Sequence record: AY692264.1
Length of the DNA stretch: 64,000 nucleotides
Source: Escherichia phage T5
Reading direction: 5' to 3' (one strand)
The notes under the pieces were generated by a model, which made no database searches, was not told the origin of the DNA, and saw only the letters and a list, made by a program, of their open reading frames with translations. Positions 1 to 56,950 of this stretch are shown piece after piece; positions within the stretch are counted from its first letter, which is position 1, and each line of letters starts with the position of its first letter. The position numbers and the translations under genes were made by a program.

Positions 1-29
1 GGGATTTCTCCTCATCAATTTATATAAAT

Positions 30-58
30 ATTATAACAAGAAATTAAGCATTAAGCAA
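30..58 (-). promoter_or_regulatory. sigma70-type promoter (leftward)
   Basis: Reverse complement TTGCTT-17-TATAAT. Confidence 0.5.
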
Positions 59-83
59 CTGCGTTTTTGAAATTTCTTGGACT

Positions 84-157
84 TGGTACTCGGTGATAGA
101 ATCGAACTATCACAACCGCCGTGTAAAGGCGGGGTTCTCCCATTATACTAACCGAGC
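84..157 (-). tRNA. tRNA-Val (anticodon TAC)
   Basis: Reverse complement folds as cloverleaf: acceptor GCTCGGT/ACCGAGT (G1-U72), anticodon stem CCGCC/GGCGG with loop TTTACAC, T-arm GATAG-TTCGATT-CTATC, CCA encoded. Confidence 0.6.
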
Positions 158-164
158 AAAAATT

Positions 165-242
165 TGGTGGGTTGCACAGGACTCGAACCTGTAACCTATG
201 GTTTAAAAGACCAGTGCTCTAAACCAGTTGAGCTAGCAACCC
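165..242 (-). tRNA. tRNA-Lys (anticodon TTT)
   Basis: Reverse complement: acceptor GGGTTGC/GCAACCC, D-arm GCTC..GAGC, anticodon loop CTTTTAA, T-arm ACAGG-TTCGAGT-CCTGT, CCA encoded. Confidence 0.6.
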
Positions 243-410
243 TTAGTAACCATTATATACTTCTTTAATAGTATGGACTTTCAAATAAAGGTGATTAGTA
301 CTAAACTCCGCCATTACTTCTTTTTCATTTTTTCCATAATGTGCAAGTAAGGATTTTGATGTATTCTTACCTAAACGTTTGTCACTTACTACTAATCGAA
401 ATACTTTCAT
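243..410 (-). CDS. hypothetical small protein (~55 aa, MKVFRLVVSDKRLGK...)
   Basis: Hand-found ORF below track threshold; AGAGGA Shine-Dalgarno 8 nt upstream of ATG; abuts tRNA-Lys. Confidence 0.3.
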   Translation of the reverse strand: MKVFRLVVSDKRLGKNTSKSLLAHYGKNEKEVMAEFSTNHLYLKVHTIKEVYNGY

Positions 411-430
411 TTCGAAATCCTCTATTAAAA

Positions 431-508
431 TGGAAGCGGGTGCAGGAATCGAACCTACCTCTTTCTAGCTTATGAGACTAGCGATCTCTACCAGAGATCT
501 AACCCGCA
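431..508 (-). tRNA. tRNA-Met or Ile2 (anticodon CAT)
   Basis: Reverse complement: D-arm GATC..GATC, anticodon stem CTAGT/GCTAG with loop CTCATAA, T-arm GTAGG-TTCGATT-CCTGC, CCA encoded; position 1-72 mismatch. Confidence 0.55.
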
Positions 509-514
509 ATTGTT

Positions 515-591
515 TGGTCTCCAATGAAGGACTCGAACCTTCAACCCCACCGCCCCAAACGGTGTACTCTAGCCAATTGAGCTAATCGGAG
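515..591 (-). tRNA. tRNA-Pro (anticodon TGG)
   Basis: Reverse complement: acceptor CTCCGAT/ATTGGAG, anticodon stem CACCG/CGGTG with loop TTTGGGG, T-arm GAAGG-TTCGAGT-CCTTC, CCA encoded. Confidence 0.6.
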
Positions 592-786
592 AAAATTATT
601 TCTTCAGCCACAACATGCTTAATCCTAGCATTGTAAAGCCTGTACTTAATCCTATTACCTTTTCTATCATAGAAAAGTTATCTATGTTAAATCCTACTAT
701 TACTATAGGGATAACCCAAGTACACATGAATACTGATGCAATTTTATACTTCACTTAGCTTTCCTTCTCTTCACTTTATAAGATAT

Positions 787-815
787 ATTATACAGAGAAT
801 TAAGCATAATAGCAA
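787..815 (-). promoter_or_regulatory. sigma70-type promoter, likely driving tRNA-Pro/Met/Lys/Val
   Basis: Reverse complement TTGCTA-17-TATAAT. Confidence 0.55.
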
Positions 816-964
816 CTACATTTTTCATAAATTTACTTATTGTGTAGGCCACCTGGAGGCTACCAACCCCACGGCTGACAAAGAAGTTTGCGAGACTTCT
901 CTTAAAAGCCAGAATAGACCCGCCGATCTATCGGAACCTACATAATAAGTAAACTTTATAGTGT

Positions 965-1085
965 CATCCTAGACAGGATTCGAACCTGCTATCACTTGTG
1001 CGGACTTACGAGAACCATTCTTTCACTCGAATCGAACGAGCTTCTGCCCTCGCCAAGTTGGTTTCCCCATCAACCACGCTAGAAT
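965..1085 (-). ncRNA. atypical tRNA-like element (~120 nt) with two T-arm-like hairpins
   Basis: 3' part has canonical T-arm GCAGG-TTCGAAT-CCTGT plus acceptor strand CTAGGAT; the only complementary 5' strand (ATTCTAG) is 120 nt upstream; a second hairpin GCTCG-TTCGATT-CGAGT lies inside; does not fit a canonical 73-93 nt tRNA. Confidence 0.3.
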
Positions 1086-1207
1086 GTTAGATTGTTTTCA
1101 GTGCAAGAGTCCGAGTCTTGGACACGACCGCTTCGCAAGTACATAGGCAGCTTATCATGAGTCAGCACTTCCGAATTGCTAGCTCCGTGTTCTGCACTGA
1201 AATTTTA

Positions 1208-1555
1208 TTAGTTTAACCGTAAAGTATTATCTACTTCACCATTAATTGTTCGGCACTCCTCTGGGATTGCCGGAGTGGCCTTGTATTCCCACCACTCAGC
1301 ACCATCATATTCCCCACGTTCTAGCCAAGTTCCGTCGGCAAACCATACATTACCATAAAGTAATTGTCCACCGTATCCAGAATCATATTCAAAGTCTAGG
1401 TTATCAAGAAAATCCTCAATATCTTCTTCTGTATAACCTAAAGGTAATACCCAAACTTTTTTATCCCCATAATACCCGAATTCTATTTTAATACACTTAA
1501 CTTCAGAATTAGTATTTTTTAAGGCAAGTAACAGCTCTTCTTTGGCATTACGCAT
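1208..1555 (-). CDS. hypothetical protein (115 aa from internal Met)
   Basis: Track ORF 1208..1642 trimmed to MRNAKEELL start so it does not overlap tRNA-Asp. Confidence 0.45.
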   Translation of the reverse strand: MRNAKEELLLALKNTNSEVKCIKIEFGYYGDKKVWVLPLGYTEEDIEDFLDNLDFEYDSGYGGQLLYGNVWFADGTWLERGEYDGAEWWEYKATPAIPEECRTINGEVDNTLRLN

Positions 1556-1580
1556 AGTATATTCCCATACTGAATTAATT

Positions 1581-1657
1581 TGGCGCGACCGATGGGATTT
1601 GAACCCACATTCTCTCCCGTGACAGGGGAGTACCATTACCAAGCCAGCCCCGGTCGC
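1581..1657 (-). tRNA. tRNA-Asp (anticodon GTC)
   Basis: Reverse complement: acceptor GCGACCG/CGGTCGC, anticodon stem CTCCC/GGGAG with loop CTGTCAC, T-arm GTGGG-TTCAAAT-CCCAT, CCA encoded. Confidence 0.65.
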
Positions 1658-1666
1658 ATAATTTAT

Positions 1667-1846
1667 TTACTCAGCTTTGAGTTGTGATTTCAACCAGTTA
1701 GTAAACCCCAGCTCAGTTACGCAATCTTTATCAATACGTTGCAGGTCTCCTAGAACCGTACTTAGATGCTTAACTGATACAGCGTCACCACTTTTGCGAG
1801 CAGCTTCAATCAACTCTCGCAGTACATAAAGCATATTCATGCCCAT
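1667..1846 (-). CDS. hypothetical small protein (59 aa, MGMNMLYVLRELIEAARKSGD...)
   Basis: Hand-found ORF; start overlaps stop of upstream small ORF (TAATG). Confidence 0.4.
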   Translation of the reverse strand: MGMNMLYVLRELIEAARKSGDAVSVKHLSTVLGDLQRIDKDCVTELGFTNWLKSQLKAE

Positions 1847-2016
1847 TATTTCATCCCCAATGCTTGGTTAAAAGATTGTTCTGTCATAACTGCTGAAACT
1901 TTGGCGAAATCAAACTTTTTAGGGTTCGTAGTGATCTCAGCAACGTTGGAAGTTTTAACAGTTTTCGTAGTACGAATACCGCGAGTGTTAACACCAATGA
2001 CGATCAAGTTTTTCAT
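1846..2016 (-). CDS. hypothetical small protein (56 aa, MKNLIVIGVNTRGIRTTK...)
   Basis: Hand-found ORF; GAGAGGAAG Shine-Dalgarno upstream of ATG; consensus promoter immediately upstream. Confidence 0.45.
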   Translation of the reverse strand: MKNLIVIGVNTRGIRTTKTVKTSNVAEITTNPKKFDFAKVSAVMTEQSFNQALGMK

Positions 2017-2047
2017 ATTTCGCTTCCTCTCATTAATTTATGAAAGT

Positions 2048-2076
2048 ATTATACAGAAGTTTAAGTATTTAAGCAA
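2048..2076 (-). promoter_or_regulatory. sigma70-type promoter
   Basis: Reverse complement TTGCTT-17-TATAAT upstream of the small-ORF pair and tRNA-Asp. Confidence 0.55.
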
Positions 2077-2084
2077 ATAAATTT

Positions 2085-2534
2085 TTAAGTTTTAGTGACA
2101 GCAGGCTTATAAAATGTATGTCCCTTAATCTTAGTTGTTTTCTTAAACTTCTTTGTCCAGTATGGTTTATCTTTACCACTATGGAAGTATAAAGCTCCAT
2201 GTGTAGGATCTTGTGGTAAATCAACGTAGTATATCACTCTAGCTAAATTCTTGGCGGTTTGCCAAGCCTCATCGGTTTTATCGACTTTTGGTCTCTTAGA
2301 TACCCAAGAGAACTGGTTAGACTGATATACTACTTTACAGTAGGAATCTGGAAATTTGCCGGAGTTTACACGGTTTTTAGTAACCTGTGCAACCGCCATC
2401 ATTCCCTTTATGCCCTCACCACGACTCTCGAAATAGATATTTTTAGCAATGCAATCTATTTCTTTTGCATCGTGCGATGCTTGACTACTAAAGCTGAAGG
2501 TAAGGGCAGCTACTAAAAGCAAAGCTGCCTTCAT
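2085..2534 (-). CDS. secreted SleB/CwlJ-like (Hydrolase_2 family) cell wall hydrolase
   Basis: Signal-peptide-like N-terminus MKAALLLVAALTFSFSSQA; motif ESRGEG..GMMAVAQVTKNRV...C.VVYQSNQFS resembles the SleB hydrolase domain; AGGAG RBS before the internal Met chosen as start. Confidence 0.55.
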   Translation of the reverse strand: MKAALLLVAALTFSFSSQASHDAKEIDCIAKNIYFESRGEGIKGMMAVAQVTKNRVNSGKFPDSYCKVVYQSNQFSWVSKRPKVDKTDEAWQTAKNLARVIYYVDLPQDPTHGALYFHSGKDKPYWTKKFKKTTKIKGHTFYKPAVTKT

Positions 2535-2539
2535 TCTTT

Positions 2540-2857
2540 TTACTCCTGCCAATCGTATTCAATACGATTGGGGTTTTCTTTGTATCCCAAGTCAAGCAAA
2601 TCATTACGCATAGTTTGCTTAGCTACGGGATTCGAGGTTACTAGTACCACTTTCTTTGGTCTCTGCCCAAATTCTAAAAGTAAACGAAGAATTTGATAAC
2701 CTTCCATACCATCTACAGCCAAATCGTTATCGAAATAAACAAAATGGCCAGTGGTATCAGTTTTATTCAGAAACTCGATAGCGGCTTCTGGGGTTCGAAT
2801 GATAATGTCCATTCCGTGAAGATTACGCACATCATCAATCAAAATATGAAAAGTCAT
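2540..2857 (-). CDS. hypothetical protein, possible CheY-like receiver fold
   Basis: 105-aa ORF with RBS and upstream promoter; pattern ILIDD...DNDL..GMEGYQILRLL...VVLVTSNP is receiver-like (weak). Confidence 0.5.
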   Translation of the reverse strand: MTFHILIDDVRNLHGMDIIIRTPEAAIEFLNKTDTTGHFVYFDNDLAVDGMEGYQILRLLLEFGQRPKKVVLVTSNPVAKQTMRNDLLDLGYKENPNRIEYDWQE

Positions 2858-2887
2858 AATAGCCTCGTTTCATCAATTTAAAAATAT

Positions 2888-2916
2888 ATTATACAGAAAA
2901 CTTAATAAATTAGCAA
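2888..2916 (-). promoter_or_regulatory. sigma70-type promoter
   Basis: Reverse complement TTGCTA-17-TATAAT upstream of 2540..2857. Confidence 0.55.
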
Positions 2917-3299
2917 ATACATTTTTAAATTGTGAAACTAGTAAACCGATAAACAGCCTAGAGGCGCCACAGGCCATATCTTACGAGCCATGTACCTTTG
3001 ATCTAGGGTTTGAATCATCAACGAATACTTTGCATCTTTTAGCTTTAGAAGTTTAGAAGTTTGAGTTCTTTAAACTTTTCAGCTTTCATACTTAAATGTT
3101 GATCTTTGAAGTTGTGTCGGTAATATCAACGACTTTTTGTTTTTACGTGTCAGATTAAATGTCTGATGTAATAAACATAATCTCCAATAGATTATACTTT
3201 ATAGTATGGTCAGCGGTCTTATTTAACCTCGTATTTCAACCGCTGCTGCGAGGTAAGATGCTTGGGCTTTCGTCTACCGATTTACTAGCTTTTAAATTA

Positions 3300-3938
3300 T
3301 TACTCTACTTCAATGAAGGTAGAGGCATTAGACTCGGACAGAACAAAGTCAACATTTGTTGCAAAGTCCTGGTATTCCTCGTCATGCTGTTTAATCAGCT
3401 TCTCCAGTCCCAGCGGATCAATCAAGAATGGAGTATTCTTGAGTTCCAACAGGTTGAGCTGCATTTTAACTTCATCTTCGGAAGTTTTCTTATCGCGGGT
3501 AGCCATGCTATCCTGCAAACGCTCATATTTAGCATCAAACTGTGCTTTCTGCGTATTAAACTTAACCGTAGCGGCATGGAACTGCTTACGCATATTAGCC
3601 AGCAACTGAGCTTTAAGCTCCATAGAACGCTTAGCTTCAATTGCTTCTGCAACAGTCATTTTACGAGAACCGATCTCAACGATCGTTTCTGCGTTGCTCT
3701 TAATCAGAGCAGCTTTGATACGATCACGCTGGGACATCATATCCAGCAGAGACTGGAAATCAGTCTTAATACGAGTAGACAGGGCATCTACTTCGATTGC
3801 GGCGCCAACTACAACCTGGTTTTTATCCTTACCTTCACCAACAGCGATCAGAAGCTGTTGTTCAGTAGCTTTACGGATTTTAGCTTCCAGAGATTTGATG
3901 GTTGCCAGAGCACGAGTTTTAGAAATACGAGTGGTCAT
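3300..3938 (-). CDS. hypothetical protein (212 aa, coiled-coil-like)
   Basis: ORF with AAGGAAG RBS; preferred over the antisense 3159..3956 ORF. Confidence 0.55.
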   Translation of the reverse strand: MTTRISKTRALATIKSLEAKIRKATEQQLLIAVGEGKDKNQVVVGAAIEVDALSTRIKTDFQSLLDMMSQRDRIKAALIKSNAETIVEIGSRKMTVAEAIEAKRSMELKAQLLANMRKQFHAATVKFNTQKAQFDAKYERLQDSMATRDKKTSEDEVKMQLNLLELKNTPFLIDPLGLEKLIKQHDEEYQDFATNVDFVLSESNASTFIEVE

Positions 3939-4973: not shown

Positions 4974-5210
4974 TTAAAGAGCTGTCTCTTTAATAGACTC
5001 CCACTTCTTGAGGTCTTTAGAACCAGGAAGCATATCCTCACTGACATCCCAGTTCTCTTCCATAGAGAAGTCAGGCCATTCATTCCAGCTACCTTCCAGC
5101 TCTTCATAACAGGTATTCATTACCTCATGACTAGAAAGTCGTGTATAATCTCTAGCGGATTTATGGGTGCTAGCACGGTTAAAATCATTCTTTGCTACAA
5201 AATTACGCAT
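4974..5210 (-). CDS. hypothetical protein (78 aa)
   Basis: ORF with TGGAGAA RBS; same strand as neighbours; the overlapping plus-strand ORF 4959..5228 is rejected. Confidence 0.45.
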   Translation of the reverse strand: MRNFVAKNDFNRASTHKSARDYTRLSSHEVMNTCYEELEGSWNEWPDFSMEENWDVSEDMLPGSKDLKKWESIKETAL

Positions 5211-5217
5211 AGTTTCT

Positions 5218-5243
5218 CCAAAATATGAGGGGCTTTCGCCCCT
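5218..5243 (-). terminator. rho-independent terminator
   Basis: Hairpin AGGGGC-GAAA-GCCCCT followed by T-rich run on minus strand. Confidence 0.55.
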
Positions 5244-12631: not shown

Positions 12632-13393
12632 TTACACCTTCCCCATGTCTTTAAAAATATCGTAGAATGCTTTAGACTCAGCAGAACGAACGTTATCAAT
12701 TAATTCGATCATTGAGAATGGAGCATTTTCATATTTCTCATAAACTTCCATAAGAAGTGCTAGACCTGAGTCACCTTTAATGTCTTTCTGAGCTATATCT
12801 CCGCAGATAATTAAACGGCAGTCTTGTCCTACACGAGTTAGTAGACAAACCATTGCCTCAACGGAAATATTCTGAGCTTCATCGACAATTACATAGGAGT
12901 TGTTGAAAGTTCTGCCACGAGCATGTTCTATAGCCAAAAATTTAATTTTCTGACGTTCGACATATCCCTTATAGGCATGATCACCGATGGCCCATTTCAT
13001 ACCATCAGCTATTGGCTCCAACCAAGGCTCTAGCTTTTCTGCTAGATCACCAGGAAGCATACCAAGAGACTTACCTAGAGGTTCATTAGGACGTACGAGA
13101 ATCACTTGCTCAATATCTGAGTGAATGTCTACGAGTTCCTGAGCTGCAAGAACAGACGGGATAAAGGTTTTACCAGTACCCGGCTCACCAATACCCACAG
13201 TCACTGTATTGTTCTTGATCATATTGATATATGATTTTTGCTCTCGGTTTTTACCTACTAGGGATTTAGCAACTGGATTAGCGTAATCATTAGAAAAATC
13301 AGCCTGAATTACGTTATTCTCATATTTGTTGCCACGCTTTCTTGAACCATTACGGTTCTCTCTTTTTTGACGTGCTTTTCCCATAAATAACAC
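12632..13393 (-). CDS. phoH: PhoH-like ATPase
   Basis: Walker A GEPGTGKTF and PhoH-like pattern; start may be the internal Met 9 nt downstream. Confidence 0.85.
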   Translation of the reverse strand: MLFMGKARQKRENRNGSRKRGNKYENNVIQADFSNDYANPVAKSLVGKNREQKSYINMIKNNTVTVGIGEPGTGKTFIPSVLAAQELVDIHSDIEQVILVRPNEPLGKSLGMLPGDLAEKLEPWLEPIADGMKWAIGDHAYKGYVERQKIKFLAIEHARGRTFNNSYVIVDEAQNISVEAMVCLLTRVGQDCRLIICGDIAQKDIKGDSGLALLMEVYEKYENAPFSMIELIDNVRSAESKAFYDIFKDMGKV

Positions 13394-13457
13394 TCCTATA
13401 GTGTACTTCGCTAACAGAGGATCAACAAAAAGATCTTGTTTATCAACTTACAAATAT

Positions 13458-13754: not shown

Positions 13755-15629
13755 ATGAATCGCAATGATGAACTAAAATACAAGGAAATGCAGTCCTTGA
13801 TTAGAAACTGCAAAGAAATTATTGAGGGTTCTGCTGATGAAGAGCTTCTCTTTAATAATGCGAATAAACCCTCTGAGCGTTTCCCTACACAAAGGGATAT
13901 GCTTGCAGGGGAATTGAGTAAATATCTGATTCTAGAAGAAATGCCAGTTCAGATTCGAAATGCTCATATGATTGGAGATATTCATTTCCATGATGCTGAC
14001 TACGCTGCATTAGGCATGACTAACTGTTGCCTAGTAGCTCTAGAAGATATGTTGAAAAATGGTATGAAAGTTGGTAATGCTGAAATTAGTACACCAAATT
14101 CTATTACTACTGCGGCGGCTATTACAGCTCAAATTATCACACAGGTTAGCTCCCATCAGTATGGTGGTACTTCTGTAGACCGATTAGATGAAGTATTGGC
14201 CCCTTATGTTCGTAAGTCTTATGATAAGAATCATGCGTTTGCAAAACGTTGGACTAAGGATGAAGCCAAAGCATCAGTAATGGCTACGGAGATGACTGAA
14301 AAAGAAGTCTATGATGCTTGTCAGGGTCTAGAGTATGAGATCAATACGATGTTCAACTCTAATGGTCAGAGTCCATTTATTACTTTTGGTTTTGGTCTAG
14401 GAACTTCTTGGGAAGCACGTCTAATACAGAAAGCAATACTGAAAGTACGTATGGATGGCTTAGGCATCAATAAACGTACAGCTATCTTTCCGAAACTGGT
14501 GTTTGTTCTGCGTGATGGCGTAAATATGAAGCCTGGAGATGTTAATTATGACATCAAGAAGTTAGCTATGAAATGTACTGCTGAACGTATGTATCCAGAC
14601 TATATCAGCTATGATAAGGTTGTGGAAGTTACTGGTGACTATAAAGTTTCTATGGGCTGCCGTTCATTCTTAGCTGCTACAGAAGATGGTGAAACTGCCG
14701 GTCGTAATAACTTGGGTGTTGTTTCTGTAAACTTGCCTAGAATTGCTATCGAAGCTGAAGGGAATATTGATCTATTCTTTGATTTGCTTGAGCTACGTGT
14801 GGATACAGCGTTAAAAGCATTGGAGTGGAGAGTTGATCGCTTAAAATACATTCAAGCTAAAGCCGCACCCATCCTCTATATGTCAGGGGCCTTTGGATTA
14901 CGCTTAGGGCCTGATGAATATGTATTCGATCATTTCTATAACCGTGCTTCTGTATCTCTGGGGTATATTGGTTGCCATGAAATGCTACAGTTCATGTTTG
15001 GCAAAGATGTAGATACAATGTCTGAGACCTGCATCAAGTTTGTTCAGCGTGTATTGCAGTACATGCGGGATAGGGTCGATCAGAAGAAGGAAGAGACTAA
15101 GTTAGGTTATAGCCTGTATGCTACACCATCAGAGTCCCTATGTGATCGCTTCTGTCGTCTAGACCGTGAATATTTTCCGGAGCATGAAGATATTCTGTCC
15201 AAAGGATACTACACTAACTCTCACCACCTTGATGTGGAACGTAAAGTTGCTCCTAACGTGAAATTTGATTACGAATCTAACTTTACTCCGATTGCTTCTG
15301 GTGGGTGTATCTCTTATGTAGAACTACCAGATATGAAACGATTCCCAGATGCACTGGAATGGGTTATTAATTATGCTGCTAGTAAGGTTCATTACTTCGG
15401 TATTAATACTCCAGTGGATTCCTGTGGTAAATGTGGATTCTTAGGTGAAACAGTAGCATCCGAAGATGGATTTAAGTGCCCTATCTGTGGTAATCATGAC
15501 CCTGAAACTCTTGAAGTAACTCGTCGAGTTTGTGGGTATCTTGGAAATCCAGGTGCTCGTCCGTTTAACCCAGGAAAACAACATGAGGTTATGGGCAGGG
15601 TGAAACATCAGGATATTCGAGCTAAATAA
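13755..15629 (+). CDS. nrdD: anaerobic ribonucleotide reductase (class III)
   Basis: 624 aa; C-terminal Zn site CPICG and glycyl-radical motif RVCGYLG; GGAGGG RBS. Confidence 0.85.
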   Translation: MNRNDELKYKEMQSLIRNCKEIIEGSADEELLFNNANKPSERFPTQRDMLAGELSKYLILEEMPVQIRNAHMIGDIHFHDADYAALGMTNCCLVALEDMLKNGMKVGNAEISTPNSITTAAAITAQIITQVSSHQYGGTSVDRLDEVLAPYVRKSYDKNHAFAKRWTKDEAKASVMATEMTEKEVYDACQGLEYEINTMFNSNGQSPFITFGFGLGTSWEARLIQKAILKVRMDGLGINKRTAIFPKLVFVLRDGVNMKPGDVNYDIKKLAMKCTAERMYPDYISYDKVVEVTGDYKVSMGCRSFLAATEDGETAGRNNLGVVSVNLPRIAIEAEGNIDLFFDLLELRVDTALKALEWRVDRLKYIQAKAAPILYMSGAFGLRLGPDEYVFDHFYNRASVSLGYIGCHEMLQFMFGKDVDTMSETCIKFVQRVLQYMRDRVDQKKEETKLGYSLYATPSESLCDRFCRLDREYFPEHEDILSKGYYTNSHHLDVERKVAPNVKFDYESNFTPIASGGCISYVELPDMKRFPDALEWVINYAASKVHYFGINTPVDSCGKCGFLGETVASEDGFKCPICGNHDPETLEVTRRVCGYLGNPGARPFNPGKQHEVMGRVKHQDIRAK

Positions 15630-15637
15630 GCTAATCA

Positions 15638-15670
15638 GCCAGGTTGCTAGTCGACCTGGCTTTTATTTTA
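15638..15670 (+). terminator. rho-independent terminator after nrdD
   Basis: Hairpin GCCAGGT-N9-ACCTGGC followed by TTTTATTTTATTT. Confidence 0.7.
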
Positions 15671-15671
15671 T

Positions 15672-15700
15672 TTGCTTTCAGCTAAAAATATATGTATAAT
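15672..15700 (+). promoter_or_regulatory. sigma70-type promoter
   Basis: TTGCTT-17-TATAAT followed by conserved leader ATAAATTTGAGGAGG. Confidence 0.6.
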
Positions 15701-15729
15701 AGATTTATAAATTTGAGGAGGTAGGAATT

Positions 15730-16110
15730 ATGACTTTAAAACCGTATATAGTGGAGTCTACGTGTGGTGGTTTCCACCTGGGTGTGGATGATATTGCTGA
15801 GGCTGTCTTTGCTGCCACAGGTGATTACTCTCATATAGAGGGTGCTGGATACCCCACCGTTATTGGTGATTGGGTGGAAACAAATCTAGATGTATCGCCT
15901 TATAACCCGTATTGCTTGTTTGATGAAGATAGAGATGAGGTAAAGTGTAATCTTGAATTTGTGTATAATAGAGTATTAAAAGTATACCAACGTAGTCCCG
16001 ATGGGTACGAAGATATTACTTGTAGTATTAAACAGTATCTTAAAGATGTATACTCTAGTTTTTCTGACGAAGACCTAGAAACAGTTGCAGTGGAGTTTAA
16101 TAATGACTAA
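15730..16110 (+). CDS. hypothetical strongly acidic protein (126 aa)
   Basis: Asp/Glu-rich, four Cys; own consensus promoter and GAGGAGG RBS. Confidence 0.6.
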   Translation: MTLKPYIVESTCGGFHLGVDDIAEAVFAATGDYSHIEGAGYPTVIGDWVETNLDVSPYNPYCLFDEDRDEVKCNLEFVYNRVLKVYQRSPDGYEDITCSIKQYLKDVYSSFSDEDLETVAVEFNND

Positions 16111-16336
16111 GAATGTGAAACACCTTAAATATCGCTTAATCTATAACGGACGTATGGAAACGGAAGAGCTAGCTCAATTAGCTATTAATTCTAATGAGGT
16201 TATGGTGCGTGCGCTAGCAATTGAAAAGTTGCGGGCTTCTTATGAAAGTCGTATTATGGAATTAGAGGAGAAACTTTATGGACTTCTTGAATCAGAAGCT
16301 AAAAGTAGTCCAGAGGGCGAGACTTCTAATCAGTAG
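16103..16336 (+). CDS. hypothetical protein (77 aa)
   Basis: Start at MTKNVKHL with GGAG RBS; overlaps previous stop by 8 nt. Confidence 0.5.
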   Translation: MTKNVKHLKYRLIYNGRMETEELAQLAINSNEVMVRALAIEKLRASYESRIMELEEKLYGLLESEAKSSPEGETSNQ

Positions 16337-16390
16337 TGGAGTAATTTTACTCCAAAATATTATCTAGGGGTTCAAGAGAGGAATCATATA

Positions 16391-17209
16391 ATGCGTAGGC
16401 TAATTATTATTAGTGGTGCAGGTTTGAGTGTTGAAAGTGGTGTACGAGCCTTCCGTACGGATACTGCTAGTGGTAAAGCATTGTGGGATGATTATGATCT
16501 AGAAGAGGTATGTAATATTCATGCCTTTCGTGGTAACTTTTATCATAAAACCCATATGTTTTACAACAAGCGACGTGAAGAGCTAAAAACTGTTGAACCT
16601 AATCTTGCGCATCTTCGTATTGGTGAATGGTATAAGAAATATCCGGGTCAAGTAGTAAATTTGACTACTAACGTTGATGACCTTATTGAGCGTGCTGGTG
16701 TTCCGCATAGTGACATTCTGCATATTCATGGGTATTTAAAAGAGGTTGTTGTAGCTGACAGCTACAATAGTAGCAATAAACGAGTTATTGATGTAGGGTA
16801 CAATTCTATTGACCCAGATGATTATAAATGGGTTAAACCTAATGTAATCTTCTTTGGTGAGCATGCTCCAGCGTACACAGAAATGTATAATATTTTTGAT
16901 GGTATTACCAGTCAAGATATGATCGTTGTAGTTGGTTGCTCTAACCAAGTAATTAACTTCTACTGGGAATTATTCCCTATTCTTAACCGTACTGCTGCGA
17001 AACTTATGGTAGTTAACTACTATGATAGTGCCCTAGCATCGAAACCAGGCTATCAAGGTATGACTCGTAGTGATATGTACCAACTGGAAGATCGTGGTAT
17101 TCCTTACTGGAGTAAAGGTGCGGTAGATGCTTTCAGTGATCCTGGTTTTATTGCTCGTGTAGAAGCTCATCTAGAGGGTAGACCTTATGTGTCAGGAAGT
17201 AAGAAATAA
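16391..17209 (+). CDS. Sir2-family (sirtuin-like) NAD-dependent protein
   Basis: GAGLSVESGVRAFR matches the sirtuin Rossmann motif GAGxSxxSGIPxFR; TTNVDDL matches the NAD-binding TQNIDxL motif. Confidence 0.75.
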   Translation: MRRLIIISGAGLSVESGVRAFRTDTASGKALWDDYDLEEVCNIHAFRGNFYHKTHMFYNKRREELKTVEPNLAHLRIGEWYKKYPGQVVNLTTNVDDLIERAGVPHSDILHIHGYLKEVVVADSYNSSNKRVIDVGYNSIDPDDYKWVKPNVIFFGEHAPAYTEMYNIFDGITSQDMIVVVGCSNQVINFYWELFPILNRTAAKLMVVNYYDSALASKPGYQGMTRSDMYQLEDRGIPYWSKGAVDAFSDPGFIARVEAHLEGRPYVSGSKK

Positions 17210-17372
17210 TGAATGGGATATTTTCATAACTGAGTCTGGCACTTGGTGCTATAGATTTGCCTATAGGTTTCCTAGTGTAAGAAAACGGCTGGGATACACA
17301 TATAAAATTATCTACACTACAGATAATATATGGTTATCCTCTGGAGATGAGGGGAAACAGATATGTCCATAG
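17187..17372 (+). CDS. small Cys-containing protein (61 aa), paralog of next ORF
   Basis: GAGGGT RBS; shares DIF..G.WCYR motif with 17363..17545. Confidence 0.4.
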   Translation: MCQEVRNNEWDIFITESGTWCYRFAYRFPSVRKRLGYTYKIIYTTDNIWLSSGDEGKQICP

Positions 17373-17545
17373 TTAAATCTGTGTATACACATCCCGATGA
17401 TATATTTGTATGGGCGGATGGTAGTTGGTGCTATCGATGTGAGCTATGGGAAATGGACTATAAATCCGATGACTATGGTGTCATATATGTTGATACAGTT
17501 GAGTATGATACGTTCTTAGAAAGGGACAAAAATGGAAATAAGTAA
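17363..17545 (+). CDS. small Cys-containing protein (60 aa), paralog of previous ORF
   Basis: GAGGGGAAA RBS; DIFVWADGSWCYR motif. Confidence 0.45.
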   Translation: MSIVKSVYTHPDDIFVWADGSWCYRCELWEMDYKSDDYGVIYVDTVEYDTFLERDKNGNK

Positions 17546-18038
17546 TACTCCAATTATTTTTCTAGACATTGATGGGGTGCTCAATTCGAGCATCTCCCAC
17601 CATCATGCACCTGATGATGAAAAGATTTTCTTTGGAAGTGACTGGGTTTTTAAACCGCTTCTCAAGGCTTTTCAGGACTTTATTCGTCCTTCTCCAATAA
17701 TGATTGTTGGGGTATCTTCATGGTTCTCTGTCAGGAATGAGATGGAGAACGTTCAGATTATGACCGGGTTAGGTCTTATAGACCGTTTTCTTGGTACAAC
17801 GGATTTTACTGGTGGTGGGCTATCTAGGGGTAATTCTGTTCTTCGCTTCGTTGAAAAGCATAAGCTCAAACATTGGTGTGTGCTGGATGATGCTGGTGCT
17901 ATGATGTATCAGTATCCAACGGTTATAGTCAATGGTAGAACTGGAATAAATCTTCAAGATTTAAGAGCTGTTAGCTATATGTTAGAATTTAGTCCAGATC
18001 TTGAAATGTGTAAAGCCCTACAACAATTTAAGGTGTAA
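17532..18038 (+). CDS. HAD-like phosphatase/phosphoesterase
   Basis: N-terminal HAD motif I FLDIDGVLN; AAGGGA RBS. Confidence 0.5.
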   Translation: MEISNTPIIFLDIDGVLNSSISHHHAPDDEKIFFGSDWVFKPLLKAFQDFIRPSPIMIVGVSSWFSVRNEMENVQIMTGLGLIDRFLGTTDFTGGGLSRGNSVLRFVEKHKLKHWCVLDDAGAMMYQYPTVIVNGRTGINLQDLRAVSYMLEFSPDLEMCKALQQFKV

Positions 18039-18040
18039 AT

Positions 18041-18469
18041 ATGTTTAATAATGTATTCTCTAAAGAAGCTAATCCAATATTGGTTAATTTTTGGCGTACT
18101 CTTCCAGCCAACCTGTACAATGAGGCTATTAATGCTCTAAAAATATGGTGTGAGAATAATGAAATCTCCTTTGCTTTTAAAGGCGAGATTGAAGAAGCTC
18201 CCTGTATTGGTTTAATTGTGCAGGTAGAGGATGGTCTTGAAGAGATTGTCGGCTGGAAAGAGTTAGATGAAATGGGCTTGGTTTTTGCATTAAACTATAA
18301 GCTGTTTATGCCTAATAAACACCGTATTGTTGTTAACTATAAAACCAGTGAATCTCCTGGCTTTCAAGTTAATGAACATTACGGTTGGTCTTACTCACCG
18401 GAAGAAGTAAATGATGGTATCCAAAAACTTCGTCGTTTTGGTTATCAAATTCCGGGTTTAACTGCCTAA
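18041..18469 (+). CDS. hypothetical protein (142 aa), tandem paralog A
   Basis: AAGGTG RBS; shares PCIG..GW.EL...GL..ALN..LF and C-terminal Y.PGL with 18479..18871. Confidence 0.55.
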   Translation: MFNNVFSKEANPILVNFWRTLPANLYNEAINALKIWCENNEISFAFKGEIEEAPCIGLIVQVEDGLEEIVGWKELDEMGLVFALNYKLFMPNKHRIVVNYKTSESPGFQVNEHYGWSYSPEEVNDGIQKLRRFGYQIPGLTA

Positions 18470-18478
18470 GGAGGCACA

Positions 18479-18871
18479 ATGGAACAAATATATTGGCGTC
18501 AGATTGATCCTAGTTTGGTGAAGTGTGCAGAGAAGCTGCTACAACGTTGGTTGGGGGTAAGACAAGCCTCCTTCACTTTTCCGGAGCAGCAAATAGACGA
18601 TCCCTGTATTGGTGTTTTCCTATCAGGCTACGCTGGGGAATGGGAATTGGATTGGAATGAATTGTCTGCTATGGGTTTAATTGTTGCACTAAATTTCTCT
18701 TTGTTCCATCCACGTGGTTTGGCTATATGTCGTGTGCCTGATGATGGTTGTTCGCCCCATCTTTTACGGGTGGAAGATGATATTTGGGAGTACACTCCAG
18801 ATACTCTCAAAGAAGCTAAAGAACAGTTAAACCGTGTTGGGATCTATGTTCCAGGCCTGAATGATGAATGA
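18479..18871 (+). CDS. hypothetical protein (130 aa), tandem paralog B
   Basis: AAGGAGG RBS; paralogous to 18041..18469. Confidence 0.55.
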   Translation: MEQIYWRQIDPSLVKCAEKLLQRWLGVRQASFTFPEQQIDDPCIGVFLSGYAGEWELDWNELSAMGLIVALNFSLFHPRGLAICRVPDDGCSPHLLRVEDDIWEYTPDTLKEAKEQLNRVGIYVPGLNDE

Positions 18872-18962
18872 TTTTTATTAGCTGAACTCTGATTACCGAG
18901 TCATTTTGGCTCGGTTTTCTCTGTACTCAAAGACACTGATAGCACCATCCGGAAAATTTTAC

Positions 18963-18991
18963 TTGCAGGATGCCCAAAATCTTGATATAAT
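18963..18991 (+). promoter_or_regulatory. sigma70-type promoter with ~490-nt leader
   Basis: TTGCAG-17-TATAAT; next start codon is at 19489. Confidence 0.5.
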
Positions 18992-19488
18992 ATTTATATT
19001 GAATTGAGAGACATTAGTAAAAATTGATTTTGCTAATTTTTCTTGTTTACAATCCGCGATACGGAACAGTTAGGCTGCCCCATTAAGGGTTGTTTTAACT
19101 GTTACTAGTGTTTATATTGCATTAGTTAATATTCAATTAAGTGATCTGTGTACCCTGAATTCGGAAAGGTAAATCCAAACCGTGCATATTTAGCTCGTTA
19201 TATAGGCAGAGTTTTATATGGGGGTGCGAACGAAAAGAGCAGCGAATGGCGGCACGTACAGTAGTCACCTACCAATAGGATAGTGAGGACAAATAGAATC
19301 GGCTTAGCGGCCAATGACCTAGGTTCTATTCTGTATATGAGCGAAGAGAGCACAGCACTGAGATATGATAACTTATTCATATTGTTTGATGATAATTGAT
19401 GTTTACGTAAATAGTAGTAATAGTTGTTCTATTCTTTCTGAATAGTCCTAAAGAAAAGATTTCGATTAACCAACACAGGAGTATTGTT

Positions 19489-22275
19489 GTGTTTTCTATC
19501 CTCCAAGGTCACGCCGGATTTTCTCGTGATTTAGCAACAGGTATTTGGCGAGAAATCAAAGCGGAAGATTATACCTTTGCCAAGCGATTCTCGAAAGAGC
19601 ATCCAGAAGGTAAACCAGCTTCTATGCCCTTCAAATTTGATGTAATAGAAGAGCACGACCCACAAAGCCTTGCCGAAATGTTACCCCTCATGAGACGTTT
19701 AACGTCTGACCCTCATATCGTTGCGGTGCGAGGTCGATGTCTCGCACCTAAAAATAATGTGCGACGTAAGAAAGGTAACTTTAATGTATCTAATCCTAGT
19801 AATATTATTGCTATGGACGTGGATGGTATCCTAGATACCGGTGGGTATGACAAATTTAATCTTGTTGGTATGGCCCGCCACATTATTAAGATGTTGAATA
19901 GTATTAGTGAGGATATGTTTCCTCTTGATGCAGGGTTTATTGCTCATGCATCGTCTTCGGCTGGGCTAAAACCAGGTATCCGAATGCACTTAATGCTAGA
20001 ATCTAACGTCAAGGTAACTCAGGGTCAGCTAAAGTTCTTATTTACATCTATCAACGATAGTAGTAAGCAAAAATTTGGTTTTGATATTGCCGACCTAGCT
20101 TATTATTCATCTGTCCAGCTCCACTATTTTGCCGACCCCTTATTTAGCGATGGTATTGTTGATCCGTTTAAAGCGGAGAGTAAGCCACGTCTGGTGTATG
20201 TTAAAGGTTCGAAAGTAAATTTGCCCAATAATCTGGTTGACTATGAAACAACTAGAGGGGAGTTTAAGGAAGGGTTTTATTCTTTACTTGATCAAATTAA
20301 AGGCAAAAAGATTGCTTCTGATAAAGTAGAAGAAACCATCAGCGAGTTAGAAGAGGCTGATGATGGAGTGTATTTGCGTATTATCCCCAAACTATACCAT
20401 AGAGCATTAGAGGATGGTGTTGATTTTGCATGGCTAGAACGTGAGATTAAACCAGCTTTATCTGAATATATTGCAACTAAAGATAACAGTCGTAATATTC
20501 AAGATTACTTTAATAACGGTCGTAAGCAGGCTCTCAAAGCGTTTGTTAATAATTCTAAACGTGAGATTCCATTAAATCTGAAAGGTGTTCCACTTAAGAA
20601 ATTAGAAGTGGATTCTCCACCAGAAGTTCCATACCTGAAGATTAACATTGTGCCCCCAAAAGGCCATATAACATTTGTTAAGGCAAGTCTTGGTACTGGT
20701 AAAACTACGGCAGTAACTAAATGGCTGGACGCAGGTGTTCTTCCAGGCAACTTTTTAGCAGTTACAAATACTAGAGCACTGGTATCTTCAAATGCCAAGA
20801 AATTTAGTGCAGGACAATACGATAAGTCTGTAGATATGCTCAACTTTAAACGTGGAGCTATCGATCGTATGTCCACAACTATTCACTCTTTGCATAAGTT
20901 CAAAAGTTTTATTGGGCAAATAGACACCATTTTTATTGATGAATGTGACGCTGTAATGAATGACCTATTATTCGCCCCTGTTGTTAAACAACGTCGCGAG
21001 TGTATTCAAGTTCTACGTGACATCCTTATGACAGCTAAGACTGTAATCTTATCCGATGGTGATATTAGTGCTGAGACGATTGAAGCATATGGTTCTCTAA
21101 TTGATTTTGATAAACCAGTAGCATTTTATAATCATCACCGTAAAATGCTGTCAAAAGCACACGCTTATGAGTTTCCTGATGAATCCAGTATTTGGGTTGC
21201 ACTTCAGACTTCTCTAGAGATGGGTGAGAAATCTATTCTAGTATCTGATTGTGGCCCGGATGAGCTGAATGAGAAGGGTATGGCACTGCGTCGTAATACG
21301 GGTGCGTTAGTTAAGGAAATCCATTCAAACTCCACCTCAGATGTGGATATTCGACGTATTCTGGATTATACAACTAATGAGCTAATTGATCAACAAATTG
21401 ATTGCTTATTATGTAGTCCATCCGTAACGAGTGGCGTTGACTTTAACTATTTCGATAATGTGTTTGTTATTACTAGAACCAGTAATCAAGCGCCAAACAT
21501 GCGTTTCCAAGCAATCAGGCGCGACCGTGGTGCCCAGAACATCTATTATTTTATTGATAAATCTACGAGTGGATTCTCTGCAGGTTCTGAGCAATATAAT
21601 ATTGATGAAGGTTGGCTGGAGTTAGCACAGCAATTATACGCACGTCGTAGAGAGCTGGAATCTAGAAACTATACTAGTACCTTACGTTATTATTTGCTTG
21701 ATCAGGGTGCAACTATTGATATTTTCAGCGAAAGCTGGGGAACTATTGAAGGTGCTGGTAAAGAATATACAGAAGAGCGAATCAAAGCTATTCTGCATTC
21801 AACTCCAGATTATTGTGCCCCACGTCATGCAGATGCATATGAAGCTAAACTACTTCTTGTTCGCTATTATCATCTTGAGTCTATTAAAGATGTAACAGTT
21901 GAGCATGTCGAACAATATATCAAAGATAAACCGAATGATCGAGCTGCATTCTTCCATAAGATGCACGAGATGTTCTGGGAAGATATTAAGAAGTGTTCAA
22001 ATGTGACCATTAAACCATTCATAGAGGCTCTGAAAGGTAAGAAGAAAGACTTCTTCCTTAAAACAGGTCAGAGTGCCAACCCAAAATATGCTAGAATGTA
22101 TCTTGGTATGATGGGTATTGGTAAGGATATGAACACTGAAAATATTGTAGACTGGTACAGAACCTATTGTAAAATCGAGTGTATGCCAATTCCTTTCAAA
22201 TTCATGACAGAGGAAGAGAGGGCTATGGCAGAAGAAGTAATGTCCGAACTTGGAGCAACTAATGAAGATGCATAA
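19489..22275 (+). CDS. UL9-like SF2 helicase / putative replication origin-binding protein
   Basis: 928 aa; GTG start with AGGAG RBS; Walker A SLGTGKTT, motif II IDECD, further SF2 motifs. Confidence 0.65.
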   Translation: MFSILQGHAGFSRDLATGIWREIKAEDYTFAKRFSKEHPEGKPASMPFKFDVIEEHDPQSLAEMLPLMRRLTSDPHIVAVRGRCLAPKNNVRRKKGNFNVSNPSNIIAMDVDGILDTGGYDKFNLVGMARHIIKMLNSISEDMFPLDAGFIAHASSSAGLKPGIRMHLMLESNVKVTQGQLKFLFTSINDSSKQKFGFDIADLAYYSSVQLHYFADPLFSDGIVDPFKAESKPRLVYVKGSKVNLPNNLVDYETTRGEFKEGFYSLLDQIKGKKIASDKVEETISELEEADDGVYLRIIPKLYHRALEDGVDFAWLEREIKPALSEYIATKDNSRNIQDYFNNGRKQALKAFVNNSKREIPLNLKGVPLKKLEVDSPPEVPYLKINIVPPKGHITFVKASLGTGKTTAVTKWLDAGVLPGNFLAVTNTRALVSSNAKKFSAGQYDKSVDMLNFKRGAIDRMSTTIHSLHKFKSFIGQIDTIFIDECDAVMNDLLFAPVVKQRRECIQVLRDILMTAKTVILSDGDISAETIEAYGSLIDFDKPVAFYNHHRKMLSKAHAYEFPDESSIWVALQTSLEMGEKSILVSDCGPDELNEKGMALRRNTGALVKEIHSNSTSDVDIRRILDYTTNELIDQQIDCLLCSPSVTSGVDFNYFDNVFVITRTSNQAPNMRFQAIRRDRGAQNIYYFIDKSTSGFSAGSEQYNIDEGWLELAQQLYARRRELESRNYTSTLRYYLLDQGATIDIFSESWGTIEGAGKEYTEERIKAILHSTPDYCAPRHADAYEAKLLLVRYYHLESIKDVTVEHVEQYIKDKPNDRAAFFHKMHEMFWEDIKKCSNVTIKPFIEALKGKKKDFFLKTGQSANPKYARMYLGMMGIGKDMNTENIVDWYRTYCKIECMPIPFKFMTEEERAMAEEVMSELGATNEDA

Positions 22276-56487: not shown

Positions 56488-56513
56488 ACTATACCAACCT
56501 ATATGTTTATAAA

Positions 56514-56545
56514 TAAAAAAGGCTCTGGGCATATCACCCAGAGCC
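56514..56545 (-). terminator. rho-independent terminator after chaperone gene
   Basis: Hairpin GGCTCTGGG-tgatatg-CCCAGAGCC followed by TTTTTT on minus strand. Confidence 0.7.
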
Positions 56546-56581
56546 AAGCCTCATCGTGGAACGCCCCATTGGAAGAAACTT

Positions 56582-56950
56582 TTACCGTGCTCGAGATTTG
56601 GCATGTGGCTTAACGTTAGGTATTCTACCGTTTTGCGGCTTATGCTTCTCAGCACGTTTACGTGCAGCGTCTACAGCTTTAGCATCAAATATATTGATAA
56701 TGTGTAGAACAAATTCTTTCTCTATAGGATCTGTAATCCCATAAATATCAAATAAAACACCTAAAGCAGCCTTGTCTTTACCTATAAAGATAGGGAAGTC
56801 ACCAGGTATGAAACAGTCAACTAGACTATTATAAATATTCATACTAATAGCTACAATAGGTGGAAAGTCTTCAAGTTCAACAGGCATGGCCTTAGGATCA
56901 GGCTCTATACCCATTGATTCACAAAGTATTAAATATTGTTGTTTAGTCAT
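56582..56950 (-). CDS. putative tail assembly chaperone
   Basis: 122 aa; between tail tube and tape measure genes. Confidence 0.4.
   Translation of the reverse strand: MTKQQYLILCESMGIEPDPKAMPVELEDFPPIVAISMNIYNSLVDCFIPGDFPIFIGKDKAALGVLFDIYGITDPIEKEFVLHIINIFDAKAVDAARKRAEKHKPQNGRIPNVKPHAKSRAR

Follow-up and report, generated by a model that had tools for sequence, protein, structure and literature searches.

An early operon of phage T5 encoding a zinc-less sirtuin, a HAD_SAK_2 phosphatase and DUF7415 proteins, and its possible role in RNA-end repair

Introduction

Between nrdD and obp (T5.108), the genome of Escherichia phage T5 carries eight small genes, T5.100–T5.107, among them a gene for a Sir2-family protein (sirtuin) and one for a HAD-superfamily phosphatase, and the question that this locus raises is what these two proteins and their small neighbours do for the phage. 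We addressed it in a stretch of 64,000 nucleotides from the T5 sequence record AY692264.1 (hereafter, the window), in which the eight genes extend on the + strand from position 15730, the ATG of T5.100, to position 18871, the stop of T5.107; positions 15600–19000 are 100% identical to positions 55656–59056 of the T5 record AY543070. The answer that we favour, tentatively and with less than even confidence, is that the sirtuin–phosphatase core of this locus performs a clean-up, dependent on nicotinamide adenine dinucleotide (NAD+), of damaged RNA ends, probably those of tRNAs cut by host anticodon nucleases or by other metal-independent RNases.

That phages carry sirtuin genes has been on record since KVP40 and T5 were sequenced in the early 2000s, and T5 is genetically tractable. 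T5.100–T5.107 have been annotated since 2004–2005, and both the association of Sir2 with HAD and a predicted role are already published.

Results

The eight genes of the locus

The genes of the locus are as follows.

15730..16110, + strand: T5.100, acidic protein of 126 residues, variable member of the unit (isoelectric point 4.09, net charge -17; matched by phrog_11748 only)
16103..16336, + strand: T5.101, 77 residues, possibly a small winged-helix protein (weak FeoC/YhgG similarity)
16391..17209, + strand: T5.102, Sir2-family protein (sirtuin), CobB/SIRT5-like but without the zinc module (Pfam SIR2, PF02146)
17187..17372, + strand: T5.103, divergent extra WCYR mini-protein of 61 residues, in part of Tequintavirus only (phrog_5116, 7e-24)
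17363..17545, + strand: T5.104, WCYR mini-protein of 60 residues (phrog_5116, 2e-29)
17532..18038, + strand: T5.105, HAD-superfamily phosphatase, HAD_SAK_2 (Pfam PF18143)
18041..18469, + strand: T5.106, two tandem DUF7415 units, paralog A (Pfam DUF7415, 3e-33 in two stretches; phrog_2502)
18479..18871, + strand: T5.107, two tandem DUF7415 units, paralog B (Pfam DUF7415, two stretches)

The original prediction, made from the letters of the sequence, had described eight small genes that include a strongly acidic 126-residue protein, a Sir2-family protein with an intact NAD-binding motif, two overlapping mini-proteins sharing a WCYR motif, a HAD-like phosphatase and a tandem pair of paralogs, and each of these descriptions was borne out (T5.100, T5.102, T5.103/T5.104, T5.105 and T5.106/T5.107, respectively). 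All eight open reading frames (ORFs) have a Shine-Dalgarno-like motif upstream. Furthermore, the ratio of nonsynonymous to synonymous substitution rates (dN/dS), determined pairwise with orthologs from eight other T5-like phages, is about 0–0.24 for each of them, and we therefore consider them real genes under purifying selection. Such selection is seen also in the ORFs of 60–61 residues (T5.103 and T5.104) that a second T5 annotation, AY587007, omits.

The sirtuin T5.102 retains its NAD-binding and catalytic motifs and lacks the zinc module

T5.102 matches a single Pfam family, SIR2 (PF02146), with 87.8 bits (cut-off 24, E 1e-24) over positions 1–178 of the 180 in the profile. Its best matches in the PDB are E. 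coli CobB (1.4e-17), Sir2Af1/2 and SIRT5, and Sir2Tm is found as well. When T5.102 is aligned with E. coli CobB, GAG (residues 9–11), F21/R22, Y58/R61, N94/D96, H113-G114, FGE and GCS are all intact, and from these NAD-binding and catalytic motifs the sirtuin looks active. The same motifs are kept in T5-like, rV5-like and phi92-like orthologs, and substitutions appear in the most divergent ones, from jumbo and KVP40-like phages. T5.102 is 52–58% identical to the sirtuins of rV5-like and phi92-like phages and about 38% identical to that of jumbo phage PBECO4; these identities, the common motifs and the missing zinc module make it a member of a phage-specific sirtuin clade.

With E. coli CobB, SIRT5 and Sir2Af1/2, T5.102 has in common the series GAGxS, FR, YxxR, (T/Q)NxD, HG, FGE and G(T/C)S. 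The phage clade differs from these enzymes, however, in having no Cys4 zinc module, in a distinct C-terminal extension, in an insert of about 27 residues present in some phage Sir2 alleles, and in scores below the equivalog level. All four zinc-binding cysteines are missing from T5.102 and from ten aligned phage orthologs, and the only two cysteines of T5.102, C41 and C183, do not align with the zinc cysteines of CobB. Against the NCBIfam CobB equivalog models (NF040867, NF001755 and others), T5.102 remains below the cut-offs, with 91.8 vs 320, 77.9 vs 318 and 101.6 vs 243 bits.

The Y-x-x-R dyad is present in T5.102, where the segment F57-Y58-N59-K60-R61-R62 aligns with FYNARR of CobB, and we take it to correspond to Y102/R105 of SIRT5 and Y92/R95 of CobB. 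It is kept in T5-like, rV5-like, phi92-like and KVP40-like orthologs, and in jumbo phages the first arginine is replaced by leucine. In SIRT5 and CobB, this class-III dyad binds the anionic acyl group; in T5.102, Y58/R61 could provide an anion pocket that admits a phosphate.

The phosphatase T5.105 belongs to the HAD_SAK_2 family

T5.105 matches PF18143 with 73 bits (cut-off 27.5, E 4e-20) over profile positions 1–138 of 139, and its ortholog in Pectobacterium phage My1 has a HAD_SAK_2 score of 74.6 bits. The segments DIDGVLN (D12-I-D14-G-V), G-(V/I)-S-S-W, TGGG and LDD, which include the DxDGV and DD motifs, are kept as far out as My1 and Aeromonas phage Aeh1, and by their position we assign putative catalytic HAD motifs I, II and IV. 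A PDB sequence search with T5.105 returned no relative. The Pfam name HAD_SAK_2 stands for 'HAD domain in Swiss Army Knife RNA repair proteins', a role in RNA repair that has itself been predicted computationally (PMC9503650).

One annotation problem concerns this gene. The family phrog_18062, labelled 'Sir2 (NAD-dependent deacetylase)', corresponds to residues 77–168, the C-terminal half, of the T5.105 phosphatase (17760–18038). Because of this mislabelling, many RefSeq records of T5-like phages show two 'Sir2' genes, the second label being wrong, and the misannotation of the HAD gene is spreading through these records.

Relatives of T5.102 are encoded beside RNA-end enzymes

In section 3.7.3 of their paper, Iyer, Burroughs, Anantharaman and Aravind (2022; Viruses 14:1977, PMC9503650) distinguish three types of neighbourhood for this sirtuin clade, the third of which, a sirtuin with a HAD that is Swiss-army-knife-like, is exemplified by the T5-like phage SP15; the section proposes that the sirtuin removes 2'-phosphates from RNA with NAD+ in the manner of KptA. 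The SP15 neighbourhood of that section is the locus studied here: in SP15, a Tequintavirus, Sir2 is 96% and HAD 99% identical to the T5 proteins, and the gene order is the same.

We were able to reproduce the association of the clade with RNA-end enzymes in rV5-like phages and in PBECO4. The rV5-like phage rV5_ev168 has, in this order, an RNA_lig_T4_1 ligase, a cREC cyclic-phosphate-processing domain, Sir2 (57% identity) and a MazG-like pyrophosphohydrolase, and beside this neighbourhood lie a divergent P-loop kinase, a calcineurin-like phosphoesterase and a tRNA cluster. In PBECO4, the order is Sir2, a Nudt16-like Nudix protein, cREC, one ORF and PIN-PhoH. The linked RNA-end enzyme of T5 is HAD_SAK_2, two genes downstream in the Sir2 operon, and Aeh1 offers a weak parallel, in which genes for a HAD_SAK_2 protein, for RnlA and for a single DUF7415 unit all fall within 2.6 kb.

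A PhoH-family or PIN-PhoH gene stands in the Sir2 neighbourhood of both PBECO4 and jumbo phage phiKp_21. T5 has its own phoH (T5.098; 12683–13435, - strand), a stand-alone gene that lies a short way upstream of the operon and points away from nrdD; its product is 35% identical to the PBECO4 protein (E 1e-22), a match that may add a link or be coincidental.

A possible pathway of RNA-end repair

The core that we consider consists of the zinc-less sirtuin T5.102 and one or two DUF7415 proteins, joined in most T5-like phages by the WCYR mini-protein T5.104 and the phosphatase T5.105; T5.100, T5.101 and T5.103 would be variable passengers. In the scheme that we infer, which extends to the RNA substrate, the chemistry of both enzymes, the part played by DUF7415 and the mini-protein, and the recruitment of a ligase from the host, T5.102 would move ADP-ribose from NAD+ to a terminal or junction 2'-phosphate, so that the phosphate is removed as ADP-ribose cyclic phosphate, and T5.105 would either remove a leftover 2'- or 3'-phosphate or strip the phosphate from the by-product, ADP-ribose-phosphate. 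A host enzyme such as RtcB would have to seal the ends, since neither an RNA ligase nor a polynucleotide kinase was detected in the regions of T5 searched.

The likeness of such a reaction to that of KptA/Tpt1, which transfers ADP-ribose from NAD+ to an RNA 2'-phosphate and releases nicotinamide and ADP-ribose 1'',2''-cyclic phosphate, would be one of function only, as the ADP-ribosyltransferase (ART) fold of KptA is unrelated to the Sir2 Rossmann fold of T5.102; in Pfam, none of the eight proteins matches the ART-fold KptA/Tpt1 family (PTS_2-RNA). In some phages, KptA/Tpt1 itself is encoded beside an RNA ligase and a cyclic phosphodiesterase (PMC9503650). A second comparison is with Pnkp and Rnl1 of T4, a phage set of end-healing enzymes that reverses the tRNA cleavage by the anticodon nuclease PrrC, and in which the phosphatase domain of Pnkp is a DxDxT (HAD-type) phosphatase. 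The T4 pathway differs in being NAD-free, in that no RNA ligase or polynucleotide kinase was detected in T5, and in that the T5 HAD belongs to another family.

Defences that cleave tRNAs are a known threat to T5, and the phage opposes them with tRNAs of its own (PMC11464382, PMC11555353, PMC10264068); as the module also evolves fast (see below), a role in conflict fits its context. If the KptA-like prediction is true, sirtuins would gain nucleic-acid phosphate as a substrate class, and T5 would have, beside its tRNA set, a second and enzymatic protection of the translation apparatus, a question that is relevant to the tRNA-targeting defences PrrC, PARIS and retron effectors.

A number of observations weigh against RNA-end repair. 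E. coli already encodes KptA. Homologs of RNA ligase, polynucleotide kinase, cREC and Nudix were not detected in the window or in AY543070 1–40056; tblastn with the rV5 RNA ligase and Aeh1 RnlA likewise found nothing in these two sequences and none is annotated between 41.7 and 78 kb, the late region beyond about 104 kb lying outside the search. The HAD is not a constant partner of the sirtuin, being missing from Sugarlandvirus and from Serratia phage Slocum, and DUF7415, which is constant, has no link to RNA chemistry. Outside the T5-like phages, the contexts of DUF7415 and HAD_SAK_2 are heterogeneous and some point to nucleotide metabolism. Distant orthologs of T5.102 occur in KVP40-like and jumbo phages, and the phi92-like and KVP40-like neighbourhoods are uninformative. 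Finally, the nearest characterised relatives of T5.102 are protein deacylases, and a literature search turned up neither enzymatic nor genetic tests for any phage sirtuin in its clade; searches for T5 Sir2 experiments, genome-wide T5 essentiality and the T5.10x locus tags yielded nothing relevant beyond PMC9503650 and PMC5107563.

We also consider, as a doubtful proposal, that T5.102 acts on nucleic acid rather than protein, by NAD+-dependent ADP-ribosylation or removal of the terminal phosphates of cleaved tRNA or mRNA, within a fast-evolving complex in which the WCYR mini-protein and the DUF7415 proteins, the latter apparently phage-only, would serve as substrate adaptors or as shields against a host factor. 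If true, this would constitute a new sirtuin chemistry, a new kind of phage counter-defence and the first function for DUF7415.

A possible protein deacylase

A different reading of T5.102 is that it is the phage's version of CobB, an enzyme that deacylates protein lysines or ADP-ribosylates proteins and would remodel host or phage proteins early in infection (e.g., by activating acetyl-CoA synthetase or enzymes of nucleotide metabolism), its operon neighbours being functionally unrelated to it. The PDB entries that it matches best are bona fide deacylases, deacylase models rank top among its NCBIfam matches, its operon lies between clusters for nucleotide metabolism and replication, and it keeps both FGE and YxxR, which we take to mark the sirtuin substrate-binding cleft and the class-III acyl pocket, respectively. 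PMC5107563 proposes a deacylase role for the ortholog of KVP40-like phages and cites T5 as another carrier of this gene; the proposal, however, is based on homology modelling alone. The loss of the four zinc-binding cysteines across the clade and scores far under every CobB equivalog cut-off (e.g., 92 vs 320 bits) argue against a CobB copy, and the orthologs repeatedly adjoin RNA-end enzymes, not acetyltransferases or metabolic targets. We regard a deacylase as unlikely.

A conserved core with a variable periphery

Homologs of obp are found in 906 phage records, about 440 of them at 80% identity or more (Tequintavirus and Epseptimavirus); HAD is found in 438 records within the same identity range, and about 435 records contain T5.107 with an identity of at least 60%. 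T5.100, on the other hand, is present in 130 records in total, compared with about 440–500 for the core genes. The slot between nrdD and obp is filled as follows.

T5, SP15, slur09, STP-SP2, S132, UTK0009 and phiR201: nrdD, one to three variable small genes, Sir2, WCYR mini-protein (accompanied by a second copy or by a membrane ORF), HAD, two DUF7415 genes, obp
Sugarlandvirus phiKp_27: Sir2, mini-protein, two DUF7415 genes; HAD absent
Serratia phage Slocum: Sir2, one DUF7415 gene, then obp; nrdD, HAD and mini-protein absent at the locus
Pectobacterium phage My1 (another subfamily): Sir2, membrane ORF, HAD, ORF of 90 residues, one DUF7415 gene
Vibrio phage KIT04 (a third subfamily): module absent between nrdD and obp

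The order nrdD, Sir2, DUF7415, obp is kept, with the intervening genes, in Tequintavirus, Epseptimavirus, Sugarlandvirus and Myunavirus, and each of the nine enterobacterial T5-like loci that we examined, which represent at least two subfamilies, has both Sir2 and DUF7415. From this comparison of slot contents we determined that the slot and its Sir2/DUF7415 core are conserved in enterobacterial T5-like phages whereas the periphery is variable. T5.105 is 87–99% identical across Tequintavirus and Epseptimavirus; nevertheless, it is DUF7415, not HAD, that is the invariant partner of Sir2, a point that is new here. The third neighbourhood type in the section of Iyer et al. (2022) names Sir2 and HAD alone, and in our comparison HAD proved dispensable in two lineages. 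Other new points beyond what is given for that type are the WCYR mini-protein that usually follows Sir2, the strong divergence of Sir2, mini-protein and DUF7415, and the lack of a detectable ligase or kinase in T5.

T5.106 and T5.107 are 32% identical over 124 residues (E 9e-20), and T5.106 has one-to-one orthologs in Epseptimavirus and Sugarlandvirus. Sequence comparison indicates that the DUF7415 duplication is old, being present already in Sugarlandvirus, and that T5.103 alone is a recent, lineage-specific copy. The 'paralog expansion' of the original prediction is thus reduced to one ancient duplication and one lineage-specific copy, and its 'accessory island' describes only a part of the locus: T5.100, T5.103 and such small ORFs as precede Sir2 vary and KIT04 lacks the module, but the core is kept in enterobacterial T5-like phages. 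Across the family, island content is accordingly invariant for the core and not for the periphery.

These data bear on the view that there is no single system here, merely eight co-transcribed early genes with independent functions in a permissive slot between nrdD and obp. T5.100, T5.101, T5.103, HAD and the mini-protein are each missing from some lineages, extra small or transmembrane ORFs occupy the slot in SP15, phiR201, UTK0009 and My1, the mini-protein and DUF7415 are each found elsewhere without Sir2, and rates of evolution differ sharply inside the operon. A loose assemblage, however, would not account readily for the joint presence of Sir2 and DUF7415 in nine of nine loci, for a fixed order of overlapping genes, or for an equally elevated divergence of Sir2, mini-protein and DUF7415 that the interleaved HAD does not share. 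We consider this view unlikely in much the same degree as a deacylase, if a little more so.

A hyper-divergent segment within a conserved backbone

The number of nonsynonymous substitutions per site (dN) between T5 and Epseptimavirus differs among the genes of the region.

phoH, nrdD and obp (flanks): 0.01–0.04
T5.100: 0.28
T5.101: 0.04
Sir2: about 0.28
WCYR mini-protein: 0.29–0.42
HAD: 0.06–0.10
DUF7415 pair: 0.18–0.25

Sir2, the mini-protein and DUF7415 have thus diverged about 10–25 times as far as the flanking genes, and HAD, although interleaved with them, has no such elevation. Furthermore, T5 Sir2 is 61% identical to that of My1, from another subfamily, but only 53% identical to that of S132, so the alleles are mosaic across genera. 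The segment behaves like a hyper-divergent and probably recombining cassette set in a conserved backbone, and its rapid divergence fits a role at the interface of host and phage.

The original prediction had proposed a cargo for host takeover or anti-defence and had pointed to NAD-depleting defences. Its host-interface part gains support from the hyper-divergent segment, which makes a role in conflict plausible, whereas for NAD-depleting defences we found no match in PADLOC and no Macro, NADAR or NAD-salvage gene. In its full form, the proposal would have the sirtuin use up or convert NAD+ or an immune signal derived from NAD while DUF7415, WCYR and T5.100 inhibit host defence proteins. The early expression of the operon (according to the annotation of the T5 record), the divergence of Sir2, mini-protein, DUF7415 and T5.100, 10–25 times faster than the flanks, with Sir2 alleles mosaic across genera, the acidic T5.100, variable in presence and sequence, and the NAD-salvage genes just upstream of the Sir2 ortholog of phiKp_21 are consistent with it. 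On the other hand, none of the eight proteins matches a defence-system model of PADLOC-DB (E<=0.1), the T5 unit contains no Macro, NADAR, Nudix or NAD-synthesis or salvage gene, a structural similarity to AcrIC4 is below significance, and the core is near-universal, not patchy as typical anti-defence genes are. Moreover, T5 replication uses an NAD-dependent DNA ligase, so that bulk destruction of NAD+ would harm the phage itself. We consider this proposal improbable.

T5.102 shares the Sir2 fold with the defence-associated SIR2 NADases (ThsA, DSR1/2, SIR2-HerA, SIR2-APAZ), which are commonly described as lacking the zinc module. These are, however, host-encoded multi-domain effectors that deplete NAD+, whereas T5.102 is a stand-alone phage protein without a PADLOC match that is closest to sirtuins of the deacylase type.

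In Klebsiella phage phiKp_21 (locus positions 896–3507), the Sir2 ortholog has about 1.5 kb upstream of it genes for an NMN (nicotinamide mononucleotide) adenylyltransferase/Nudix protein and a nicotinate/nicotinamide phosphoribosyltransferase, and after it comes a further ORF.

DUF7415 proteins and their contexts

T5.106 and T5.107 score 114 and 105 bits, respectively, against DUF7415 (PF24187; cut-off 27). The AlphaFold2 model of T5.107 has a predicted local distance difference test (pLDDT) score of 92.3, and no fold relative of DUF7415 is known. The family is tiny, with 132 representatives among 1.84 billion proteins in an exhaustive profile search, and it appears to be phage-restricted; two word-indexed searches for DUF7415 homologs found T5-like relatives only. 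Among the longer matches, one informative fusion was identified, the metagenomic protein P0111, which joins DUF7415 to a thymidylate kinase; other giant matches with multiple repeats were set aside as presumed repeat artefacts.

Single-unit DUF7415 genes of 77 residues occur in T4-like phages, such as Klebsiella phage KPV15 (3980–4213 of the locus) and Aeh1 (4995–5228). In Jiaodavirus the gene stands between nrdD, whose 3' end it overlaps, and nrdG, and in Aeh1 it follows immediately after the RNA ligase gene rnlA. In Slopekvirus it comes after NudE, and elsewhere it stands beside a terminase or among unrelated small genes. HAD_SAK_2 in turn overlaps td in Aeh1 and lies near dUTPase in Proteus phage phiP4-3. 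As these contexts are heterogeneous, we did not take them as support for RNA-end repair.

They do bear on the least probable of the explanations considered, an adjunct to nucleotide metabolism in which HAD would be a nucleotidase or a phosphatase of nucleotide derivatives, DUF7415 would bind or regulate an enzyme such as NrdD, and the sirtuin would transfer (phospho)ribosyl groups from NAD+ or NMN, much as CobB can substitute for CobT: the operon follows directly after nrdD and faces the thy-frd-nrdB-nrdA-phoH cluster, and the Jiaodavirus and Slopekvirus positions of DUF7415, its fusion to thymidylate kinase and the td and dUTPase neighbours of HAD_SAK_2 all point the same way, but Slocum keeps Sir2 and DUF7415 without nrdD at the locus, KIT04 has nrdD and nrdG without the module, DUF7415 is found also beside a terminase and among unrelated small genes, the fusion rests on a single protein, and adjacency in T4-like genomes is weak evidence because these genomes pack many unrelated small genes.

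Boundaries of the transcription unit

From Sir2 to T5.107, neighbouring genes overlap or are at most 9 nucleotides apart, and the unit is delimited by the following elements.

15637..15661, + strand: intrinsic terminator after nrdD, upstream boundary (10-bp stem with six GC pairs, then a T-run; annotated in AY543070 and AY587007)
15672..15700, + strand: early promoter of the operon (-35 TTGCTT, 17-nucleotide spacer, -10 TATAAT; read from the sequence)
18895..18915, + strand: intrinsic terminator, downstream boundary (9-bp stem with five GC pairs, then a T-run; annotated in both T5 records)

The promoter lies within one that AY543070 annotates, and its counterpart in AY587007 is 'early promoter T5P31'; a consensus scan missed it because its -35 hexamer matches at only three of six positions. 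The downstream hairpin is kept in the alignment as far out as My1. When foreign composition was looked for, the GC content of T5.100–T5.107 proved to be the same as that of the surroundings. Given the tight packing, the strong flanking terminators, the early promoter and this GC content, T5.100–T5.107 is one early transcription unit and not a compositionally foreign island. An Rfam search of positions 15400–19700 gave zero matches.

The small proteins

T5.100 has no Pfam or PDB match, and its AlphaFold2 model is unusable (pLDDT 51); its dN/dS is about 0.15. T5.101 is about 91–92% identical in Epseptimavirus (dN/dS 0.03–0.15) and missing from phiR201, Sugarlandvirus and My1. Its similarity to FeoC/YhgG is full-length but weak and below threshold (NCBIfam E 0.005; four PDB entries at E 0.04–0.26, with 1xn7 at 0.04), and since it has no cysteines it would share the FeoC fold at most.

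T5.103 overlaps the 3' end of Sir2 by 23 nucleotides, T5.103 and T5.104 overlap each other by 10, and these two mini-proteins have the motif DIFxxxxGxWCYR in common; the family motif is D(I/L)xVWPDGSWC(Y/F)R...SDD(Y/F), in which the first cysteine alone is conserved. T5.103 is present in T5, SP15 and slur09 and absent from STP-SP2, S132, UTK0009 and phiR201. Orthologs of T5.104, often unannotated, directly follow Sir2 in Tequintavirus, Epseptimavirus and Sugarlandvirus; in T5 itself, T5.104 comes after the extra copy T5.103. The mini-protein is absent from My1 and Slocum and present without Sir2 in Erwinia phages of the genus Kolesnikvirus. A PDB match of T5.104 in a thioredoxin WCxxC region (E 0.07) was rejected, because the second cysteine is not conserved and 60 residues cannot form the fold.

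Surroundings of the operon

At positions 1683/1684, the window lacks 8,059 bp of AY543070 (33681–41739), a region of tRNAs and small ORFs; window positions 1–1683 correspond to AY543070 31998–33680 (offset 31997), and the offset is 40056 from position 1684 on. The gap looks like, and we presume it to be, a classical T5 deletion of the st(0) type.

A non-coding gap of about 570 nucleotides (18920–19488) separates the operon terminator from obp, which starts with GTG; in this gap, an early promoter comes first and then a leader of about 470 nucleotides. RNAalifold gave no convincing structure for this conserved region upstream of obp, and it has no Rfam match. A gap of 430–840 nucleotides precedes obp in all T5-like loci examined, and in SP15 and S132 genes for HNH endonucleases have been inserted into it. 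Two blocks, ATACGGAACAGTnnGGCTGCCCCAT (about 19058–19083) and GCTTAGCGGC (about 19301–19310), are invariant from T5 to Sugarlandvirus and My1, and the gap could be a structured 5' untranslated region or a DNA element related to an origin.

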